DNA of 64,000 nt, taken from positions 2,372-66,371 of IMG/VR virus record IMGVR_UViG_3300047539_000071. The stretch is one strand, 5' to 3'. The notes beneath the pieces are model-generated. The model was not told where the DNA came from and did not search any database. It saw nothing but the letters and a program-made list of their open reading frames with translations. Made by a program: the position numbers and the translations under genes. Shown in pieces: positions 2,927 to 24,415 of this stretch; position 1 is the stretch's first letter; every line of letters starts with the position of its first letter. Source of the stretch: a virus (lineage: Duplodnaviria; Caudoviricetes).

Positions 2927-4945
2927 ATGGAACGAGTAAACCTCTGGATCGACATCGAAAGCCGGTCTGAGCTGGACTTGAAAGAAGTCGGGCTCGACAA
3001 TTACTCAAAACACCCTTCAACCCAAATCACCCTATTCGGGTGGTGCATCAACGACGCCTTGCCTACTATGTGGCGCCCCTGGGAGCGCCCGGAAGCGCCG
3101 GAAGAGCTTCGGCTCATGCTGACGCGGCCTGAAATCTATAAATTCTGTTTCAACAGTCAATTCGAGCAAACCATGCTCCGGGCATGCTTAGGGATTGACA
3201 TTCCTACTGAGCAATTCGTGGACGTGGCTACCCACTGCAAATACGCGTCCATTGCCGGCAACCTCGAGTTCTGCGGCGATGTGATTGGCATCGATGCGGA
3301 CGACGCGAAGATGGCAATCGGGAAGTCGCTGATTGCGAAGTTCTGCAAGCCTAAGAAGATAACCAAAAAGGATCCGACCGGCGGTTTCAGCGACTGGAAT
3401 TCGCACCCTGAAGAATGGGCGCAGTTTGAGGCTTACTGCGCGAACGACATTATTGCAGAGCGTGCAATCTTCTACAAACTGAAGGCGTTTCAGTTGCCGC
3501 CGAACGAGCGGAAGATTTGGTGCCTGGATCAGAAAATCAACACGCGCGGAATTCCGATCGATACAAAGTTCGTGGCGAACTGCGACAAGTTCGTCGAGGA
3601 CGAGAAGAGTCTTTTGATGAAAGAGTTCCGCGACCTAACGGGGCTCGAGAATCCAAACTCGGTGAAACAACTGCTGGGATGGTTGAAGACGAAAGGCTAT
3701 CCGTACAATAGCCTGGGGGCGCCACGCGTCAAGGCGGCTCTCGAGGCCAGCAAAGCGTGTGCCGCGTCAGATGCGATGCCAACAGCGGGGGAGCGGGCGT
3801 TAGAACTCCGTCAGTTGCTCGCTAAGTCGAGCACCGCGAAATTGCAAGCAATCAAAGATCTGATCGGTGCCGATGACCGGTTGCGGTTTCAGTATGTCTA
3901 CGGCGGGGCAGCCCGCACGCTACGCTGGTCGGGACGAGGCGCACAGCCGCAAAATTTTCCTCGCCCTTCAATCAAAGATGTGGAAGGAGCAACCAATGCG
4001 ATTCTTGCGGGCGATCTTACTGCCCTGCGCACTTGCGGGCCTGTGCTTGGCGCCGTTTCTAGCTGCCTCCGTGGGGCTATCAAAGCAGAAACGGGAAAGG
4101 TTCTTGTTGCGTGTGATCTTTCCTCTATCGAAACCGTAGGCTCCGCGTGGCTGACCGACTGCACGCCGCTGCTGGCTGTCTTCGCAGCGGGCAAAGACCC
4201 GTACATCGATTTCGCCACGAAGATGTTTGGCGTGCCCTACGAGGTTGTAACGAAGGAACAGCGACAGATGAGTAAGCCTGCCGTGCTCGGGGCCTGCTAT
4301 GGGCTCGGGGGCGGGGAAATGGGCGTCGATACAGCGGGCGACGATATCCGCACCGGGTTGTGGGGTTATGCGCTCAACATGGGCCAGGATTTACCGCAAG
4401 ACTTCTGCCATGACTGCGTGAAGACCTACCGCGATGTCTACTCGGAAATTAAAGATCAGTGGCGGCAGCTTGAAATGGCCGCCGGCAAAGCATGCCTTGA
4501 GGGCAAGCGGTACACCGCATGCCGCTGTCACTTCGATGCCGTGCCTGGGAAGATCCTCTACATCACTCTACCTAGCGGGCGGCGATTACATTACCTGAAA
4601 CCGAAAGTGAGCGAGTATTTGTGGTTCGGAAAACCGAGCTACAAAATCTCTTACGAGAACAATATTCTCGGCGGCTGGGGCCGAGTTCACACCTTCGGCG
4701 GAAAGATTCTGGAGAATATAGTGCAAGCCTTTTCTCGCGACATTTTGACGGCAGGGATGCTGCGGGCCACTGAATTAGGTTTCTCCATCATCATGCACTC
4801 TCACGACGAGATCGTGGCGGAAGAGACGATCGGATCATCTTTGAATGGCGAGAAGCTGCGCGAGGCAATGGTGGCGCCGCAGGCATGGGCGCCAGGACTT
4901 CCACTGAAAGCAGAACCGTCCGAATCAGAAAGGTATAAGAAATAA
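2927..4945 (+). CDS. polA: Family A DNA polymerase (phage type)
   Basis: Exonuclease motifs DIE, FE, YCAND; motif A DLSSIE, motif B RQMSKPAVLGACYG, motif C HDE. Confidence 0.95.
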   Translation: MERVNLWIDIESRSELDLKEVGLDNYSKHPSTQITLFGWCINDALPTMWRPWERPEAPEELRLMLTRPEIYKFCFNSQFEQTMLRACLGIDIPTEQFVDVATHCKYASIAGNLEFCGDVIGIDADDAKMAIGKSLIAKFCKPKKITKKDPTGGFSDWNSHPEEWAQFEAYCANDIIAERAIFYKLKAFQLPPNERKIWCLDQKINTRGIPIDTKFVANCDKFVEDEKSLLMKEFRDLTGLENPNSVKQLLGWLKTKGYPYNSLGAPRVKAALEASKACAASDAMPTAGERALELRQLLAKSSTAKLQAIKDLIGADDRLRFQYVYGGAARTLRWSGRGAQPQNFPRPSIKDVEGATNAILAGDLTALRTCGPVLGAVSSCLRGAIKAETGKVLVACDLSSIETVGSAWLTDCTPLLAVFAAGKDPYIDFATKMFGVPYEVVTKEQRQMSKPAVLGACYGLGGGEMGVDTAGDDIRTGLWGYALNMGQDLPQDFCHDCVKTYRDVYSEIKDQWRQLEMAAGKACLEGKRYTACRCHFDAVPGKILYITLPSGRRLHYLKPKVSEYLWFGKPSYKISYENNILGGWGRVHTFGGKILENIVQAFSRDILTAGMLRATELGFSIIMHSHDEIVAEETIGSSLNGEKLREAMVAPQAWAPGLPLKAEPSESERYKK

Positions 4946-5646
4946 TGAAGATACTAGGGCTTGACACCGAAACGACCGGCTTAAATCCTCAGACCGACTC
5001 CATCACTGAAGTCGGGCTCGTGCTCTTCGACACAGAAGTACGTGTGCCGGTTCGCGTTTCCGGCTTTCTGGTCAAGGGCGGTTTCATCAGCGAAGAGATT
5101 ACGCGCGTCACCGGGCTTACCAACGAACTTACCGCCGAGTACGGTTACACGCAGCAGCTGGCGTGTAAAGCAATCGCGCATATGGCCCTTGGGGCAGATT
5201 ACTTCTGCGCTCACAATGCCCCGTTTGACCGCGGCTTTGTTAGCGAGATGTTCCGCAAAGAGAAGATGGAATCCCCCCTGAAGCCTTGGATTGACACCCG
5301 CACCGACTTGCCGCCGGAGGCATACAAAAAGGGGAAGAGCGCTTCGCTGAAGTACCTCTGCTGCGACCACGCTATCTACTACCACGCCCACCGTGCAGTC
5401 AACGACGTTCTCGCCATGCTGGAGCTCCTCTCCCGCTATGATCTCGACACCATCTGTGAACGTGCTGCCACTCCCAATGTGGAAGTGCGCGCAGTGGTCT
5501 CGTTTGACGATAAGCAGCTGGCGAAGGAACGATCATATTATTGGAAGCCAGAACTCAAGCAATGGCGGAAGCCAATGAAGGCCAACGAAGTAGAACGAGA
5601 AAAGAACGAAGCGCCGTTCCCCGTCATTCTGATCGAGGGCGAATAA
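4945..5646 (+). CDS. DEDDh 3'-5' exonuclease (DnaQ-like)
   Basis: LDTETTG, AHNAPFD, HRAVNDV. Confidence 0.9.
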   Translation: MKILGLDTETTGLNPQTDSITEVGLVLFDTEVRVPVRVSGFLVKGGFISEEITRVTGLTNELTAEYGYTQQLACKAIAHMALGADYFCAHNAPFDRGFVSEMFRKEKMESPLKPWIDTRTDLPPEAYKKGKSASLKYLCCDHAIYYHAHRAVNDVLAMLELLSRYDLDTICERAATPNVEVRAVVSFDDKQLAKERSYYWKPELKQWRKPMKANEVEREKNEAPFPVILIEGE

Positions 5647-5852
5647 TGAAAATCGACATAGGAACCCTACGGCGACGGTTGTTTATTCCGATCAATCACG
5701 AGTGGAACGGCATTGTTCGTGGCATAACGGCTGAGTATGAGTACGACAAAAAAGTGGATGTAGAGTTGGTGTGCGATGCTATGGCTAGGTTTTATAAAAA
5801 CCGCGCCACCATAGCCCGGATGATGCGAGAGTGGCGGGAGGTACTAAAATGA
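5646..5852 (+). CDS. Hypothetical protein
   Basis: TAATG coupling, 68 aa. Confidence 0.5.
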   Translation: MKIDIGTLRRRLFIPINHEWNGIVRGITAEYEYDKKVDVELVCDAMARFYKNRATIARMMREWREVLK

Positions 5853-5947
5853 CGCCAGAACTTAGTGGCGCAATCGCAACTTTAGTCAACGTAATCACGG
5901 CGGGCGTGGTAATCTTGATCTTCGCCTTTATCTGGAGGAATATGTGA
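5849..5947 (+). CDS. 32-aa membrane peptide
   Basis: MTPELSGAIATLVNVITAGVVILIFAFIWRNM; overlaps both neighbouring genes by 4 nt. Confidence 0.45.
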   Translation: MTPELSGAIATLVNVITAGVVILIFAFIWRNM

Positions 5948-6912
5948 GCACAATCACAAAGCTGTACGGAGGTCGAGCAACATGCACGTTCCGAGAGAAG
6001 GCACACACTTACAACTTCCTAGTTCCGAATGTTTGCGACAAACTCTGGCAACCTTCTGTGACTGGCGTTTTGGGAATGAAGGCCAAGCCTGCTCTGGTGG
6101 GTTGGGCGGCGAAAGAGTCTCTGAGCGTGGTTCGGCGCCGGCTCGGGGAGTATCAATCCGCAAACGGGGAAAACGCCCAGATGTTTCCGCACAACGTCTT
6201 AGAGTGGATAGCTGACGCGGAAGAAAACTGGCGGGAAGAGGACAGCAGCACCACCATCGGCACTGTCGCGCACCGATTCGCATATGAGGATCTCCGCTTC
6301 CGGTGCGGACTTACCAACACGAAACCGAAGTTCCCGATCGAACATGACCCAGTGTTAATGCCTGATTTTACGGCGGGCATGCTCGAGATGGCAAACAATT
6401 CCGCTGTCCAGGTCTTGCAGTACTTCGACGCGCACGACTTCAGGCCGTTACAGATGGAGCGCCCGTTATGGAGCCCTATTCGGGGCTTCTGCGGAACCCC
6501 GGATTTCATCGGGTACATCGACAACATACTCTCGGTCGCAGACTATAAGACTTCAAAGAAGATCTACGCCGAATATTGGGCACAGCTCTCCGCACTGCAA
6601 TTCATGTATGAAGAGGAGTTCGGCGGTTGCATCGCCCAAAGAGTGGCCATAAACATCCCGAAGGATGGGACCACGCTCCAGGTCGAGACGCGAAAGTTCG
6701 ACTACCGGCACGCCGAAGACCTCGGAATGTTCTTCAACTGCCTGGGCACATACCACTGGAATCGGGCCAATGATGACTTTGCAGCGGGTGACCCGGTCAG
6801 GGTGCTAGGAGACATATTTGGGGCGCACCCTCCGCTGGCATGGGCCACCCGTCCTGATGATCAACGACCAGACCAGCGGCGTGGGGTATTGACAGACGAT
6901 TGCCCCTTTTGA
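5944..6912 (+). CDS. PD-(D/E)XK exonuclease
   Basis: PSVTGVL, GTPD, ADYKTS, QLSA motifs. Confidence 0.8.
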   Translation: MSTITKLYGGRATCTFREKAHTYNFLVPNVCDKLWQPSVTGVLGMKAKPALVGWAAKESLSVVRRRLGEYQSANGENAQMFPHNVLEWIADAEENWREEDSSTTIGTVAHRFAYEDLRFRCGLTNTKPKFPIEHDPVLMPDFTAGMLEMANNSAVQVLQYFDAHDFRPLQMERPLWSPIRGFCGTPDFIGYIDNILSVADYKTSKKIYAEYWAQLSALQFMYEEEFGGCIAQRVAINIPKDGTTLQVETRKFDYRHAEDLGMFFNCLGTYHWNRANDDFAAGDPVRVLGDIFGAHPPLAWATRPDDQRPDQRRGVLTDDCPF

Positions 6913-6970
6913 TAGTCTCTTGAAGGCAGCTTTGCTGCTAAATTCAATCGCACAAATCAGGGAGTCACAA

Positions 6971-7495
6971 ATGCCTATTTACGCCCCCGAGTCAACCAGC
7001 TTTACCCCCGCAACAGCCGGCGAACAGCAAGGAGTCATCGCGAAAGTGGTGGATCTTGGCCTCGTTAAGTCGGAGTACAAGGGTAAGGAAACCATCAAAC
7101 CGAAGATCCAGGTGATCTGGCAGGTAACAGAGAAGGATGAGAAAAACCTTCCGAAGCGCGTCAGCCAGTTCTTCACGTTGTCCCTCGATCAGAAGGCCAA
7201 CCTTTACAAGTTCTGCATGCAACTGTTCGGAAAGGTTCCTGACAAGAGCTTCGACTTCTCGGAACTCGAAGGCACCAACCGGAACCTGTTGCTCGTCCCT
7301 TCCCCGGACGGCAAATATACTAACGTTGCCGGCATCTTGGCCCTAAAGCCGGGTCAGGCGAAGTTGAAAATCGTGCCGTTCGAAGTCAAGTCGAAAGTGG
7401 TAGGAGATCTGAAGCCCGCCGCGGCCATTCAGGGCGCCGCAGGCACCAAGATCACCGAAGCCGCTCCGATTACAGACGACGATATTCCGTTCTAG
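6971..7495 (+). CDS. Single-stranded DNA-binding protein
   Basis: Beta-rich core and acidic C-terminal DDDIPF tail; next to the exonuclease. Confidence 0.75.
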   Translation: MPIYAPESTSFTPATAGEQQGVIAKVVDLGLVKSEYKGKETIKPKIQVIWQVTEKDEKNLPKRVSQFFTLSLDQKANLYKFCMQLFGKVPDKSFDFSELEGTNRNLLLVPSPDGKYTNVAGILALKPGQAKLKIVPFEVKSKVVGDLKPAAAIQGAAGTKITEAAPITDDDIPF

Positions 7496-7638
7496 CCTAA
7501 TCTCTACGGCAAGGACGGAAGGGGGCGTACAGGCATAGGACTGAGCACTTCGAACCTCAGGTACCGCCTGACGCCTCCACCTCCCTCGACAACGAAGCAG
7601 CGGGCAGCGGACGATTGCGATGCAACGGAGGAAGTCTT

Positions 7639-7947
7639 ATGAGCGAGACGCGAAATATCATCGAAAAAATCCTCTTCAGAAGGGCACTCGAACACAAACT
7701 CGAAGGCTATACGCTCGTAACCGCTTTAGAAATCTCGGAGGCTTTGAAGTCTGAATATTGCTGCCCGGAATGTGCGGCACCTCTGGAATTGGCGAAGCAG
7801 CGCGTTACGATAGTAGAACGGCTGATGAAACTGTCCTACATCAAGGCCACACGCAATGCCAGTGTGGGTCAAGAAATTTTCGTTTGCCGCGATGATGTGA
7901 TTACGATGATTCACGAGTACGCCAAAGCTGACCAGGAGAAATCATGA
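7639..7947 (+). CDS. Hypothetical protein
   Basis: GGAGG upstream; CPEC motif. Confidence 0.55.
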   Translation: MSETRNIIEKILFRRALEHKLEGYTLVTALEISEALKSEYCCPECAAPLELAKQRVTIVERLMKLSYIKATRNASVGQEIFVCRDDVITMIHEYAKADQEKS

Positions 7948-8150
7948 GCCGCTCCACTATCTCTGCGGAACTGGAGGCTCGATCGAGAAAGAAAGAGGGC
8001 ATCTTTCTGATGCTGCTCGCCAAGTCTGAAAAGGAGTCAAAAGATTATGATCGAGGATGACGACTTAACAACGGCCTTCGTGATTCTGTGCCTCTGCTTT
8101 CTGCTGTTCATTGCAGGCAAAATAATCTTTCAAGGAAGCTGGTGGATCGC

Positions 8151-8699
8151 TTGAAAATCTGCGCGCACTGTGGAGACTCGAAACCCCTAGTGGAGTTCAA
8201 CGTACATGCGACGAACAAAGACGGACGGCGCTCCGACTGCCGTTTATGCCAGCGACTAGAACTGAAAGAGTGGCGAAAGAATAACCCCGCTGAAAACGCA
8301 GCCCGGGACAAGAGGGCGCGAGCTAAATACCGTGCGCTGCATCTAGAAGAGGAGAGAGCACGAATACGGCGAAACGGACCCTCCAATAAAGCCCGAAGGC
8401 GTGCTGCAAAAACCGGCGTGGGCGGGAGTCATACACCTAAAGAATTGGAAGCACTTAAACTCTTTTATGGCTGGAGCTGCGTAGCGTGCGGTCTAACTGA
8501 AGCAGAGATCACAACCCTCAACAGAAAATTGGTTGGAGATCACGTTTTACCTATCACTAAAAAAGGATCCAACAGCATCACCAACATACAGCCCTTGTGC
8601 CACGGTGTCGGAGGCTGCAACAACCGCAAAACTATCAAACATATCGACTATCGTCCTGACGCTGGATTGTGCTTTGCGATTATGAAACTAATGGGGTAA
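8151..8699 (+). CDS. HNH endonuclease
   Basis: CxxC pairs, DHVLP..GSNSITNIQPLC..CN. Confidence 0.85.
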   Translation: MKICAHCGDSKPLVEFNVHATNKDGRRSDCRLCQRLELKEWRKNNPAENAARDKRARAKYRALHLEEERARIRRNGPSNKARRRAAKTGVGGSHTPKELEALKLFYGWSCVACGLTEAEITTLNRKLVGDHVLPITKKGSNSITNIQPLCHGVGGCNNRKTIKHIDYRPDAGLCFAIMKLMG

Positions 8700-8707
8700 A
8701 CTCTCTT

Positions 8708-10573
8708 ATGCAAAACTTCACGGAACGCGCCTCGGCTGCAATTCGCCGGGGCTTTTCAATTATTCCCGTAGAACCGCGCGGCAAAACACCACTGCGCGGA
8801 GCCAAGAGCCGTACGAATACCGAAGATGGCGTCCGCGCTTTCGCTGCGCAAGTTCCAGAGGACGCAAACTTCGGAATCGTCTCGGACGATACTTTCACCA
8901 TCCTCGAGACTGACAATCTCGATAAGTTCCTGGCTGCGCTCGGCCAAGAGCTCCCTGTTACTTTCTGTGTCTCCGCGAGCCCCAATCGCGCCTATTTCGT
9001 ATTCGAGCAAACCGCTCGGAGTAGGGCAGTGACGAAGAACTACGAGTGGGAGGGCGTATTCGAGTGGAGGCATAAAAACGAGTACTGTGTCGGGCCAGGA
9101 TCTGTTCACCCCTCCGGGCGTACTTACGAGGTCATCACCGACTCGCCGGCAGCGGCGTTCCCCGATTGGCTCGTTAGCCGGTTGCAGGAGCTGTACAAGA
9201 ATGCGCCCGTCAGCACGAAGCCCAACGCGACAAATGAGGTCGATCGGGACGCTTACACGACCCTTCGTGACGCGTATCTATGGGAGCTCAATCCCTCGGA
9301 CATGCTCAAAGAACAGGTAGAAATAAGCCTGGGGCGCCACGGTACCATGCTGTCCGTTGCCGGGTTGCTGCACGACGGCGAACGCACGCAAGAAGAGGCC
9401 GTCACCATAATCGGAGAGCTGTGGGATAAATTCTGCACAAGGCCGCCACGCGGTAAAAAAGAAATCGAGGATATCGTTCAGCATGCCTTTGGAAAGAACC
9501 CCTGCAATTTCGAGCCGCAAAACCTCCCGATCCCGATTCATAGCGGGCTCACCATCTATGCAACCGAAGGGGAGAAAGAAGCCGGTCTCGACGAAGCCAG
9601 CCTCCGACTATTCCATACTTACGCCGAATTCCAAAGCACGCCCCCCATCCAGTTCGCCATCAAAAACTTCCTCCAGATACAGGGCGCTACGATGCTTGGC
9701 GGCCTGCCGGGGCATGGGAAGACATTGGTTGCGCTCGCAATGGTGCGATCGCTCTTAGAGGGGGATCCTCTCTTCGGCTACTTTCCGGTCAATGAAGTCT
9801 CACAGCGCGTCGTCTATCTTATCCCCGAATGCGGTCATAGCCCGTTCAAATCGCGCCTAGAAACGTTCCGCCTAGAAGAGCACATCAAAAGTCGCCGATT
9901 TCTCTACCGCACCTTGTCAAAAGGCCAGATCTTAAAATTGGACGATAAAGTGTTGCTCCACGCGTGTAAGGGCGCGGATGTCTTTCTGGACACTGCGATT
10001 CGGTTCATAGACGGGGATGAGAACGCTTCTACCGACCAGAAGGTTTTCAACGACAACCTGTTCGCGCTGCTAAACGCCGGCGCCCGGACGATAACCGGCC
10101 TCCATCACAGCCCCAAAAGCGCGGAGACTGCAAACTACATGAGCCTTGAGAACACCCTTCGGGGAACCGGGGAGCTGGGGGCTGCTCTGAGCTCCTGCTG
10201 GGGCATAAGGCAATGCGACAAGCTCAAGAACACCCTCTACATAGATTCGGTCAAAGCCCGAGATTTCATCCCGGATGAAGCCTTCTTGCTTGAGGGTAGA
10301 CCCCATCTGGACGCTACCGGCTATTTCAAGATGCTAAAGGCTCCTGGCGCCGCAGGCAGCCTCAACGACAACAAACCGCGCCGGGAAGGCGAGAAGAGCG
10401 GCGGGCGTCCATTACCAGAAGGCACAGACAAAGACGTTTGTATGGGCCGAATCCTGTCTCTCAAAGCGGAAGGGAAGAGTTTGAGAGAAATTGCGGAGGA
10501 TCTGGGCGTCTCCAAAGACACTGTCTCACGGTGGCTCAAAGAGACGGAAGAAAAGTCAAAACGGCTGGAATAG
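8708..10573 (+). CDS. Bifunctional primase-polymerase plus AAA helicase with C-terminal HTH
   Basis: Prim-pol motifs (IPVEPRGKTP, NFGIV, GPGSVHPSG), Walker A GLPGHGKT, HHSPK, HTH SLREIAEDLGVSKDTVSRW. Confidence 0.9.
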   Translation: MQNFTERASAAIRRGFSIIPVEPRGKTPLRGAKSRTNTEDGVRAFAAQVPEDANFGIVSDDTFTILETDNLDKFLAALGQELPVTFCVSASPNRAYFVFEQTARSRAVTKNYEWEGVFEWRHKNEYCVGPGSVHPSGRTYEVITDSPAAAFPDWLVSRLQELYKNAPVSTKPNATNEVDRDAYTTLRDAYLWELNPSDMLKEQVEISLGRHGTMLSVAGLLHDGERTQEEAVTIIGELWDKFCTRPPRGKKEIEDIVQHAFGKNPCNFEPQNLPIPIHSGLTIYATEGEKEAGLDEASLRLFHTYAEFQSTPPIQFAIKNFLQIQGATMLGGLPGHGKTLVALAMVRSLLEGDPLFGYFPVNEVSQRVVYLIPECGHSPFKSRLETFRLEEHIKSRRFLYRTLSKGQILKLDDKVLLHACKGADVFLDTAIRFIDGDENASTDQKVFNDNLFALLNAGARTITGLHHSPKSAETANYMSLENTLRGTGELGAALSSCWGIRQCDKLKNTLYIDSVKARDFIPDEAFLLEGRPHLDATGYFKMLKAPGAAGSLNDNKPRREGEKSGGRPLPEGTDKDVCMGRILSLKAEGKSLREIAEDLGVSKDTVSRWLKETEEKSKRLE

Positions 10574-10834
10574 ACTGTCCCGCCTGGGACAGAAGAAAGT
10601 CGGAGGCAGCATCCCGGGCCGGTTGAACCGGAACCATAGTGGAGGTTCACCGGGCTGGGGGTTTTGGGACTGTCCCATAATTCCATATCTAGGTAATACG
10701 GGACAAGGGACAGTTGATTCTAAAGGAGTTACGCCTCACCGCCGAAGCCCGTGGGACAGTAGGGGTTTACTGATTCTAAAGGGGTTGCGGTTTCTGAAGT
10801 CGGAATCAGAGGTCCGTGGGACAGTTGTGGGACA
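10574..10834. repeat. Origin-like element, copy 1 (GGGACA iterons)
   Basis: 8 GGGACA/TGTCCC hexamers, 2x TGATTCTAAAGG, hairpin at 10613-10659. Confidence 0.75.
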
Positions 10835-10897
10835 GGGAAATGTTACGGGAAATGCGGCTAACCCGGCTCGGATCCAAATGCTCATAAACTCGGAGGC

Positions 10898-11172
10898 TGT
10901 CTCACAACTGTCTCACTGGGACGGAAGAAAAGTCGGAGGCAGCATCCCAGTCCGGGAGAACCGGAACACTAGTGGAGGTTCCTCCCGGGGCTGGGGGTTT
11001 GCTACTGTCTCAAACTCTTTTTCCTAAGGGGTATGAGACATGCGACAGCTGATTCTAAAGGAGTTACACTGATCCGCCGGGGTCTGTGAGACAGCAGGGT
11101 TTTACTGATTCTAAAGGGGTTGCGGTTTCCGAAGACTGAATTTTATAGTCCGTGAGACAGTTGTGCGACAAG
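10898..11172. repeat. Origin-like element, copy 2 (GAGACA/GCGACA iterons)
   Basis: Colinear diverged copy: 6 GAGACA/TGTCTC, 2 GCGACA, 2x TGATTCTAAAGG, hairpin at 10946-10995. Confidence 0.75.
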
Positions 11173-11182
11173 CCGTGAAGGG

Positions 11183-11467
11183 CTAAACCTTCTTGAGCCA
11201 CGGCTGGGGCTGTTTTGTCCGACCGTCGTCATCCCACTTGACGACGGCGTCCTCGTCATTAGTTCGCTCAACCGTGCCAATTTCTCCCGTCGGCTTTCCG
11301 AAGTTGCCTAATTCCTCGACTCGATCTCCTGGAGTTAGTTCTTGGTCGGTAGCCGGGGGCGTGACTAGCGCTGGCCTCTTGGCTCGGTCTGTGTCGGCGG
11401 GTGCTCCGGCGTGTGGCAGAGGCGGTTTCGGAGCGGTGCGCAGTTTTGGTGCCCGTTTACGGCTCAT
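11183..11467 (-). CDS. Small protein with SH3/KOW-like C-terminal half
   Basis: GDRVE..GEIGTV..AVVKWDD pattern; GGAGG RBS. Confidence 0.65.
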   Translation of the reverse strand: MSRKRAPKLRTAPKPPLPHAGAPADTDRAKRPALVTPPATDQELTPGDRVEELGNFGKPTGEIGTVERTNDEDAVVKWDDDGRTKQPQPWLKKV

Positions 11468-11833: not shown

Positions 11834-12424
11834 ATGTCCCCCAAAATGTCCGCTCCGGTAGACTTCCGATCTATGGCCCGCCGCTGGCGTTCCGGATCGA
11901 AGGCCCGGGCCTTGAAGCTAGGTAGAATGATAGACTTACCATCGATCGACGAGGTGTTTGACCACCTCTGTTCTCTGCCAGTGCCTCTTCGGTGCTCGTA
12001 TTGTGATGTCCGCATTTACCGCCCCCAAATGGATCACCGAATCAGTCTAAGTCGAGGGGGAAGCGCGGAAACCTCCAATCTAGCTTTAACCTGTAAGCCT
12101 TGCAATCTTGCGAAAGGGCCTCTGAACGAGGTCGAATGGCGCTCATTGCTATCATTCTTAGACACTTGGGAGGATGCGGGCGCTGCGAAAAGCCTTCTCA
12201 GCCGGCTCCGCGGAGCTTTCTGGTGCTACAAGCCGGCGGTAAGGGCCCGGAAGAACGTCTCCGTGAATTTAAAAACGCGCCTAGAAGGCCCCGCGCGACC
12301 CGTTTCCTGTGCCGTACAGCTCGATTCACCGAAAGAGGGTATCTACCCACCCATTTGCCACCAGCATCGTGTACGGGGCTGCGATTGGTGCGCAGCTACG
12401 GGTGGAGACGGATATATTGACTAA
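11834..12424 (+). CDS. HNH endonuclease
   Basis: CSYC..DHRISLSRGG..SNLALTCKPCNLAKG. Confidence 0.85.
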   Translation: MSPKMSAPVDFRSMARRWRSGSKARALKLGRMIDLPSIDEVFDHLCSLPVPLRCSYCDVRIYRPQMDHRISLSRGGSAETSNLALTCKPCNLAKGPLNEVEWRSLLSFLDTWEDAGAAKSLLSRLRGAFWCYKPAVRARKNVSVNLKTRLEGPARPVSCAVQLDSPKEGIYPPICHQHRVRGCDWCAATGGDGYID

Positions 12425-18102: not shown

Positions 18103-18279
18103 TCATCGGAGTATGCCGTGCGTCTTGATGTACCGCCGAATGTGGTTAAGTAGCCACTCTTCTTCGAACATTTCGTGCGAGGCTGTCTCGTAATCGGACA
18201 CATAATTAGACAGCGCTGTCTCCAGCATGATCAGGTGATCGTCAGTTAACATGATCGGCGAATTGTCCATCTTGCTCAT
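18103..18279 (-). CDS. Hypothetical protein (58 aa)
   Basis: Translated by hand (MSKMDNSPIM...); ATGA overlaps on both sides. Confidence 0.5.
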   Translation of the reverse strand: MSKMDNSPIMLTDDHLIMLETALSNYVSDYETASHEMFEEEWLLNHIRRYIKTHGILR

Positions 18280-24092: not shown

Positions 24093-24415
24093 GCTGGAGC
24101 CGATCTAGCGTGCAACAATTCACCTGAAGTGTCGCAAGCCGTTGATTCTAAACGCGCTAAACGCGGCCTTTTTTCCCGCCTTAATCCGCCTATGCTGTGC
24201 AGCGATCGCCCCACCGTTCGCCGTTTCTTCGCCCTCGAGCGAGCGGTTGGACCCAGGGGGAGCGAGTAAGCAGGGGGTGGTCTGGCAATGGCGATTGACC
24301 TCTTATCACGCGGGGACCGTGGGTCTTATGCGCACAGTGACGTCCTGCAAGCGGTTTGATTTTCAATAAGATAACCCCGAAGTAATAACTGTACGGTGAC
24401 GTTGCCGTTTTCCCC

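Follow-up and report, generated by a model that had tools for sequence, protein, structure and literature searches.

The 64-kb window analysed here (IMG/VR virus record IMGVR_UViG_3300047539_000071, positions 2,372 to 66,371; coordinates below count from its own first letter) belongs to an uncultured tailed soil phage. Behind its one primase-helicase gene, a gene-free gap of about 610 bp is filled by two colinear, directly repeated cassettes whose iterons are sorted by a single base, G in the first copy and, at all sites but one, A or C in the second. We regard this region, with fair confidence, as the replication origin of the phage, duplicated in a manner resembling the crr of phage P4. It is probably read by the C-terminal helix-turn-helix (HTH) domain of the initiator, as the primase-helicase is called below. 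The complete proposal, a twin-cassette origin read by that HTH in which the sorted base marks two affinity classes, is the one towards which we lean; that one initiator reads two affinity classes is, as a separate element, put forward tentatively.

Two cassettes sorted by one iteron base

The initiator has, by Pfam, a Prim-Pol domain (PF09250, residues 22-167), a RecA-type, RepA/DnaB-like helicase domain (AAA_25, PF13481, residues 322-485) and a predicted C-terminal HTH_23 domain (residues 594-626, nucleotides about 10448-10555) that scores above the Pfam cut-off (E = 9e-8). The phage homologues that it matched by tblastn carry the annotation repA. From its stop codon the gap, 609 bp long, extends to a convergent open reading frame (ORF) of 94 aa, which has no Pfam family and is gene-called in those related contigs that reach so far. 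The two cassettes of about 263 bp each are 80% identical by MAFFT column and 82.6% identical by global alignment. A repeat search paired 10574-10648 with 10907-10981 and 10650-10806 with 10985-11141, and the start-to-start spacing is 333-336 bp (Table 1). The initial annotation had described two colinear copies with iterons and a 12-mer twice in each, all of which was found again; the 12-mer, TGATTCTAAAGG, has exactly four copies in the 64 kb, two per cassette.

Iterons are concentrated at this spot. There are eight copies of GGGACA in cassette 1, and 10500-11200 holds seven of GAGACA and two of GCGACA. GGGACAG occurs seven times in the 700-bp region as compared with six times in the remaining 63 kb, and GAGACAG six times as compared with five, the enrichment of iteron 7-mers in the twin region being about 100-fold. 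All eight matches of the 66,371-bp record to a strict iteron, GTG(G/A/C)GACAG, lie within 10521-11160, and 13 of the 21 matches of the window to a looser 8-mer lie within 650 bp, the others being scattered singletons at chance level. No second iteron cluster was found with the strict iteron in the record or with the looser 8-mer in the window. GAGACAGC is present at 18182 and 18215, but neither site matches the extended iteron, and both are regarded as chance occurrences.

Eight iteron pairs were aligned between the cassettes, with G-N-G-A-C-A as the core. Cassette 1 has G at position 2 in 8/8 sites, whereas cassette 2 has A in five, C in two and G in one, the G site also lacking the final A. 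Position 2 has changed in seven of the eight pairs, as compared with one change in 40 at the remaining five core positions (Fisher p = 8.5e-7). Because the changes are, but for this one, confined to position 2 although the cassettes overall differ at 17% of positions, the alignment indicates that a GACA-reading function has been kept by both cassettes, and that position 2 has been driven apart non-neutrally, under selection. Restriction-site avoidance was ruled out as the cause of the change from G to A, since GGGAC and GAGAC both occur at the expected frequency genome-wide.

This pattern bears on whether one of the cassettes is a decaying or neutral duplicate without function. Such a duplicate would be in keeping with the commonness of tandem duplications, with the degenerate site 2 of cassette 2 (GGGACG) and with the slippage variants of the spacer that occur in the population. 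Both copies, however, retain the GACA core, hairpin pairing, both boxes and the spacing in spite of their divergence, and the changes are focused on one iteron position, which makes loss of function in either copy highly improbable.

The hairpin in the left part of each cassette differs between the copies by one T-A to G-C double change in the arms and by indels that preserve pairing. Both versions fold, in agreement with the earlier claim of compensatory arms; the comparison is one of single folds, the three-sequence alignment being too poor for pair counting. No Rfam family matched at E up to 10 between 9500 and 12500 of the window. We also observed that 10574-10642 and 10907-10975 share an open frame of about 22 codons, running from the left-end iteron to the same TAG in the hairpin loop, and that in relatives L003 and L017 (see below) the coding tail of the helicase gene includes the hairpin. 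The left part of the cassette may therefore be a former C-terminal tail of the gene.

A third, partial copy of the cassette's left end lies in the gene itself. Its A-type iteron (10520-10529, minus strand) covers the codons T-V-S of the recognition helix, and a 15-mer occupies 10543-10557. That these two segments match copy 2, at 10907 and 10921, had been pointed out by the initial annotation and is correct: 25/25 nucleotides are identical to 10907-10916 and 10921-10935, with one 10-nt indel. The left ends of cassettes 1 and 2 differ at 5 of about 29 positions. In the simplest history, the tandem duplication unit would have begun within the last 54 nt of the gene, and the remnant of the gene tail would have been lost from the second unit afterwards, through a deletion between two short direct repeats. 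TCA, the Ser codon on the recognition helix, makes the in-gene site an A-type one, and a G-type site there would encode Pro. Given this proline and such a beginning within the gene, we read the codon match as history plus coding constraint, not as designed self-recognition.

The twin is not an assembly artefact. The same initiator protein, or a variant more than 90% identical, is present on seven other contigs from seven samples (JGI, ENA; several assemblers), one of them 67.7 kb long. Their gap sequence is 99-100% identical to that of the window as far as each reaches, contig L026 ending within copy 2; they differ by a single substitution, by the loss of 12 bp through slippage in the spacer of two contigs and by one scaffold gap. 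Since the same arrangement recurs across these samples and assemblers, misassembly of two strains, a doubt raised together with the initial annotation, was ruled out. The scaffold gap, in L027 (about 4620-4720), is a run of N exactly at the end of cassette 1. The spacer deletion, in L028 and L029, lies between two GGGAAATG repeats and goes with the replacement of G by A beside cassette 1's last iteron.

Table 1. Positions of the initiator gene, the twin cassettes and their parts in the 64-kb window.
Feature	Position	Strand	Remarks
Initiator gene	8669..10573	+	634 aa; Pfam: Prim-Pol, AAA_25, HTH_23
Partial left end of cassette, in-gene	10520..10557	+	Within last 54 nt of gene
Cassette 1, G dialect	10574..10836	+	Iterons GGGACA(G)
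Cassette 1 iterons, first four	10574-10581(-), 10586-10592(+), 10669-10676(-), 10700-10705(+)		
Cassette 1 iterons, last four	10707-10714(+), 10753-10760(+), 10818-10825(+), 10829-10835(+)		
Hairpin 1	10613..10660	+	14-nt loop, then G5T4 run; -32.8 kcal/mol, z = -2.5
AT-rich patch 1	10677..10700		71% AT, genome 99th percentile; between inverted iterons; candidate unwinding element
Host-type boxes of cassette 1, degenerate	10715-10726, 10771-10782	+	Iteron before each
Spacer between cassettes	10837..10895		About 59-70 bp; from alignment
Cassette 2, A/C dialect	10896..11172	+	
Cassette 2 iterons, first four	10896-10903(-), 10907-10914(-), 10918-10923, 11004-11011(-)		10918-10923 is degenerate GGGACG
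Cassette 2 iterons, last five	11035-11040(+), 11042-11048(+), 11088-11095(+), 11154-11161(+), 11165-11171(+)		11042-11048 is GCGACAG; 11165-11171 is GCGACAA
Hairpin 2	10945..10997	+	12 of 14 loop nt as in hairpin 1; -36.7 kcal/mol, z = -3.1
AT-rich patch 2	11004..11027		67% AT; position equivalent to patch 1
Host-type boxes of cassette 2, degenerate	11050-11061, 11106-11117	+	
Convergent ORF	11183..11467	-	94 aa; closes gap

Iterons behind the gene in diverged relatives

The DNA 3' of the homologous gene was taken from relatives with protein identities of 26-75%. A scan of IMG/VR with a single protein had returned no relatives, and alignment-based scans few close ones. Wherever a lineage had enough sequence downstream, short repeats cluster there, beginning at or just past the stop codon and usually preceded by a GC-rich hairpin. 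More than ten diverged relatives have lineage-specific iterons at this same position: GGGACA-type in L002 and L017, GTGACAG together with GTTACAG in L008, L018 and L019, TGACAC in L007 and L009, GTGGACAG in L010 and unrelated 9-10-mers in L012-L016. The helicase core and the HTH are kept in the relatives, some of which have DnaB_N or a zf-CHC2 primase instead of Prim-Pol. We take the gap of our phage as an origin because the only primase-helicase gene precedes it and ends in an HTH, because the iterons are unique to this spot and because the relatives are arranged likewise. The term 'origin-like' of the initial annotation is supported on the same grounds.

Some relatives have composite arrays. 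In L008 (3700-3805), L018 (4470-4570) and L019 (4065-4165), a GTGACAG sub-unit is followed by a GTTACAG sub-unit, each ending with a host-type box, and in L010 (3990-4190) GTGGACAG iterons are followed by GGGACA, several of the iterons lying within the 3' coding end of the gene. L003 changes abruptly at 5100-8761 to low-GC DNA with fragments resembling ribosomal proteins L7/L12 and L1 and rpoB, and may be a chimeric assembly.

In the nearest relative, L002 (75% protein identity), only one cassette is present; it measures about 256 bp and is inverted with respect to the gene. The order of its parts is the same as here: left iterons, hairpin, a G5T5 run, inverted iterons around an AT-richer stretch, two units of iteron plus box and a terminal iteron. 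These features mark the cassette, as far as sequence comparison can define it, as a discrete module. The L002 hairpin has other inner-stem and loop sequences and still folds (-34.7 kcal/mol), so that a hairpin is kept with differing arm sequences in copy 1, copy 2 and L002; the differences between L002 and the copies have the character of true covariation. Because the hairpin is inverted relative to the gene in L002, it is not simply the terminator of the helicase gene there.

The two cassettes share 82.6% identity with each other and 73-76% with that of L002; their duplication would therefore be later than the split from L002, unless the copies have been partly homogenised. Cassette 1 has kept the L002-like iterons, and the sequence between iterons is more L002-like in cassette 2. 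The iterons of L002 are mixed at positions 1-3 within its one cassette, which speaks for tolerance at these positions and against their strict reading.

An inverted single cassette in L002 and, in cassette 2, a terminal inverted repeat of 19 nt that is 95% complementary are features that a mobile element might leave, and we considered whether the twin arose by two insertions of a cassette resembling a miniature inverted-repeat transposable element. No copies were found elsewhere in the genome, the 'terminal repeats' are the iterons themselves, and recombination between inverted iterons accounts for the L002 inversion; a mobile cassette is hardly credible.

The initial annotation had proposed to examine whether iteron sequence follows HTH residues across relatives. 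A recognition helix K-S-(S/T)-V (L002, L017, L010) pairs with G at iteron position 2, and (H/F)-K-T-V pairs with T. In L007, L008, L009, L018 and L019, all with T iterons, the residue after the first helix position is K or R; L003 has an H-R-T-V helix and a poorly defined iteron. The K-D-T-V helix was found in this phage alone, where both G and A/C iterons are present. That the residue after the first helix position tracks iteron position 2 is suggestive, resting as it does on three clades. An IMG/VR scan for A-type iteron arrays returned mostly coding repeats and no relative combining a K-D helix with an A/C-type origin; at the one locus that combines A-type iterons with a match to the helicase (26% identity), the recognition helix is unrelated.

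A probable duplicated origin and its alternatives

The closest known layout to the twin cassettes is the P4 crr. In P4 (NC_001609), the alpha gene, which like the initiator here encodes primase, helicase and a C-terminal DNA-binding domain in one polypeptide, is followed by a terminator and by crr, two 120-bp direct repeats 60 bp apart (annotated at 4291-4410 and 4471-4590), each with five type-1 iterons in both orientations. There are, however, clear differences. P4 alpha combines Toprim, SF3 helicase and winged-helix domains in contrast to Prim-Pol, AAA_25 and HTH_23, and no P4 match was obtained by tblastn. The 120-bp P4 repeats carry the same iteron, whereas the cassettes here, about 263 bp long, differ by a systematic one-base change. 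P4 also requires a separate ori 4.5 kb away, and there is no second iteron cluster here.

Other systems share single features with the twin. In the pathogenicity islands of Staphylococcus aureus (SaPIs) and phage-inducible chromosomal islands (PICIs), a self-loading helicase initiator (Rep or fused Pri-Rep) has a C-terminal DNA-binding domain, and the ori lies directly past rep with 6-12 short iterons of element-specific sequence, in opposite orientation across an AT-rich centre (PMC9371898). Here too iterons follow the gene directly and are inverted around an AT-rich patch in each cassette. SaPI Rep is nonetheless an AAA+ protein with a winged-helix C-terminal domain (PMC9371898), by description distinct from the RecA-type AAA_25 and HTH_23 found here, and SaPIs have a single ori lacking the twin, the hairpin and the host-type boxes. 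The oriV of IncQ plasmid RSF1010 uses a RepA helicase, a RepB' primase, the iteron binder RepC and the hairpins ssiA and ssiB (PMC4234260, PMC8567376). The likeness lies in a RepA-type AAA_25 helicase, a primase of the archaeo-eukaryotic type and iterons with hairpins, for which a priming role is known in RSF1010. There, however, three separate proteins do what one polypeptide would do here, and of its hairpins each strand carries one, ssiA or ssiB, in contrast to the present hairpins, which are direct repeats on one strand. In pRN1 (ORF904) and Bordetella phage BIP-1, a Prim-Pol/helicase/winged-helix protein has a stem-loop origin downstream of its gene (PMC4234260), with an SF3 helicase, a 100-nt stem-loop and no iterons as against AAA_25, a hairpin of about 50 nt and dense iterons.

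We infer the following scheme. The HTH of the Prim-Pol/helicase would bind the iterons of both cassettes, and the duplex would open at the AT-rich patch between inverted iterons, with more same-sense iterons to its right. The GC-rich left hairpin may act as an operon terminator, as a signal at which the Prim-Pol domain primes or is loaded, or as both, and the two degenerate boxes per cassette, which resemble repetitive extragenic palindromic (REP) elements of the host, probably recruit a host DNA-binding factor. A tandem duplication would have given the twin, both cassettes having since been kept under selection. G as opposed to A/C at position 2 would set two affinity classes for one initiator and so allow ordered or cooperative loading, as with ori and crr of P4 or the strong and weak DnaA boxes of oriC. 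The DnaA boxes of oriC, of high and low affinity, differ from one another at single positions and are filled in order by one initiator. They are interspersed, whereas the sites here fall into two duplicated cassettes, and their initiator is of another protein family. The most parsimonious reading of the partition is a single initiator with strong and weak sites.

Several observations weigh against this scheme. Neither a sigma-70-like promoter nor a clear DnaA box was found in the region, the AT-rich patches are short (24 bp) and GC skew gave no origin signal. Conservation of the gap in the near-relative phages says little about selection, because they are about 99% identical overall (99.2-99.97% over the surrounding 3-7 kb). 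The split is also more orderly than mere affinity tuning would lead one to expect and fits two readers about as well, and the Asp of the helix could mean that cassette 2 alone is cognate.

The split, G-only as opposed to A/C, can indeed be taken as the mark of a specificity switch caught midway. On such an account the origin was duplicated, the Ser-to-Asp change in the helix and the A/C copy co-evolved, and the G-type copy was retained through the initiators of relatives or through residual binding, with cross-replication or a decoy role in co-infections. General protein-DNA chemistry would predict this outcome if a residue reading O6/N7 were replaced by a carboxylate, which takes hydrogen bonds from the amino groups of A and C. 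K-S-helix relatives have G-type iterons and K-D is confined to this phage; the 3' end of the gene has an A-type iteron identical to the left end of cassette 2, and L008, L018, L019 and L010 likewise mix one-base iteron variants in adjacent sub-units. Two readers nevertheless sit poorly with the window, in which a single HTH of the HTH_23 kind is encoded and no second one was found. The relatives scanned yielded no purely A/C-type origin with a K-D helix, the covariation of residue and base is based on three clades, and L002 has G, A and other bases in one cassette. Nor was the HTH imported in one block with cassette 2, since the gene and cassette 2 are separated by cassette 1. We consider the switch unlikely. 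Of the two origins of different specificity proposed by the initial annotation, the partition itself is real and non-neutral; the difference in specificity does not follow from it, given the single HTH, the mixed bases of L002 and the fact that strong and weak sites explain the pattern equally well.

Not every iteron array is an origin, and such arrays are also known from parC-type centromeres. The iterons might thus be operators, a partition (centromere-like) site or a packaging site, with the hairpins as terminators of the convergent units. The gap does lie between convergent genes, a short plus-strand T run follows each hairpin, and P4 has a terminator at the same place. Against this, no promoter-like sites were found, leaving nothing for an operator to act on; the terminase gene is 16 kb distant; no Par protein was noticed among the ORFs scanned, which numbered only about 20; the inverted L002 hairpin does not terminate the helicase gene; and the tie to an HTH-bearing helicase persists over many lineages. 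A function other than replication is accordingly improbable, and we retain the duplicated origin with one initiator as the preferred reading.

Host-type boxes, phage context and significance

The conserved 12-mer is a degenerate or diverged copy of a 17-19-mer, TGATTCTAAAGGACTTA, as found by an IMG/VR pattern scan. At least 119 viral contigs contain TGATTCTAAAGGACTTA; its flanks in them are unrelated, and it often stands within iteron-rich intergenic DNA (for example L038, L076, L082, L089, L100, L113 and L128; host loci are L149-L268). It showed no link to this helicase and no consistent neighbouring gene family, the most frequent accompanying at most 7/54 viral loci. Exact matches in a set of species-representative genomes are overwhelmingly from Acidobacteriota, and three genomes of this phylum have 53, 84 and 16 copies at up to two mismatches, as compared with 0 for the reversed control. 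Host copies often form inverted pairs 26 or 43 bp apart, like REP elements or bacterial interspersed mosaic elements, and in Terriglobia they adjoin tRNA genes or stand in arrays upstream of promoter-like sequences. In relatives of this phage, box variants directly follow the iterons. No Rfam family was found at the gathering threshold in 20 viral and host loci scanned. The phages of Acidobacteriota, which are a major but little-studied phylum of soils, thus embed a REP-like box of their host in origin-like regions, and the box is therefore a putative pointer to a host factor. We infer that it is the site of a host DNA-binding factor which these phages use in their origins.

Two other roles for the box were rejected. 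The apparent match to an IHF site derives from an upstream half-palindrome, the boxes of the window being off consensus. A ribosome-binding site or promoter of a neighbouring gene was ruled out here, as no start codon follows the box in the window; in L003, L007 and L100 a start codon does follow it. A fifth, partial copy of the box, at 24141-24185, has one mismatch in the 12-mer and lies directly before a short hairpin and T run. It falls in a low-GC strand-switch region near 22-24.5 kb of the window, which has the look of this phage's main regulatory region.

The complete record is 66,371 bp long and estimated to be 96% complete. Its replication module comprises DNA polymerase A, an RNase T-like exonuclease, two HNH endonucleases, an ATP-dependent ligase and the primase-helicase, and the structural module begins near 27 kb. 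Cultured phages gave no match at the DNA level and partial protein matches of 26-28% identity. The taxon-named helicase homologues are from Terriglobales or Candidatus Sulfotelmatobacter, and the host is therefore probably an acidobacterium. HNH endonuclease genes shift around the origin and in most relatives one lies directly 3' of the iterons (L002, 6186-6602; L007, 5963-6445; L008, 3856-4218; L009, 5006-5491). Those of the window are at 8088-8699, overlapping the start of the helicase gene, and at 11834-12424, 660 bp past the twin. Homing by HNH endonucleases with co-conversion of flanks could help in reshuffling the origin region.

An iteron origin behind the gene of a self-loading helicase is a known design, and in this respect the origin call is ordinary. 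What is new is a duplicated origin whose copies are cleanly sorted by one iteron base, the functional remainder being kept. How the specificity of an initiator and its origin can change without a non-viable intermediate is a question for plasmid incompatibility and for cross-talk between phages and satellites, and a duplicated origin in two dialects is a concrete candidate for such an intermediate. The twin may, though we give this little weight, have been an evolutionary bridge, on which the helix moved from Ser to Asp and one copy to the new dialect while the old copy maintained viability. If this were true, there would be origins of two specificities, the old one usable by the initiators of relatives in co-infection, and dialect pairs elsewhere in the family would point to a recurrent route by which origin-initiator specificity evolves.

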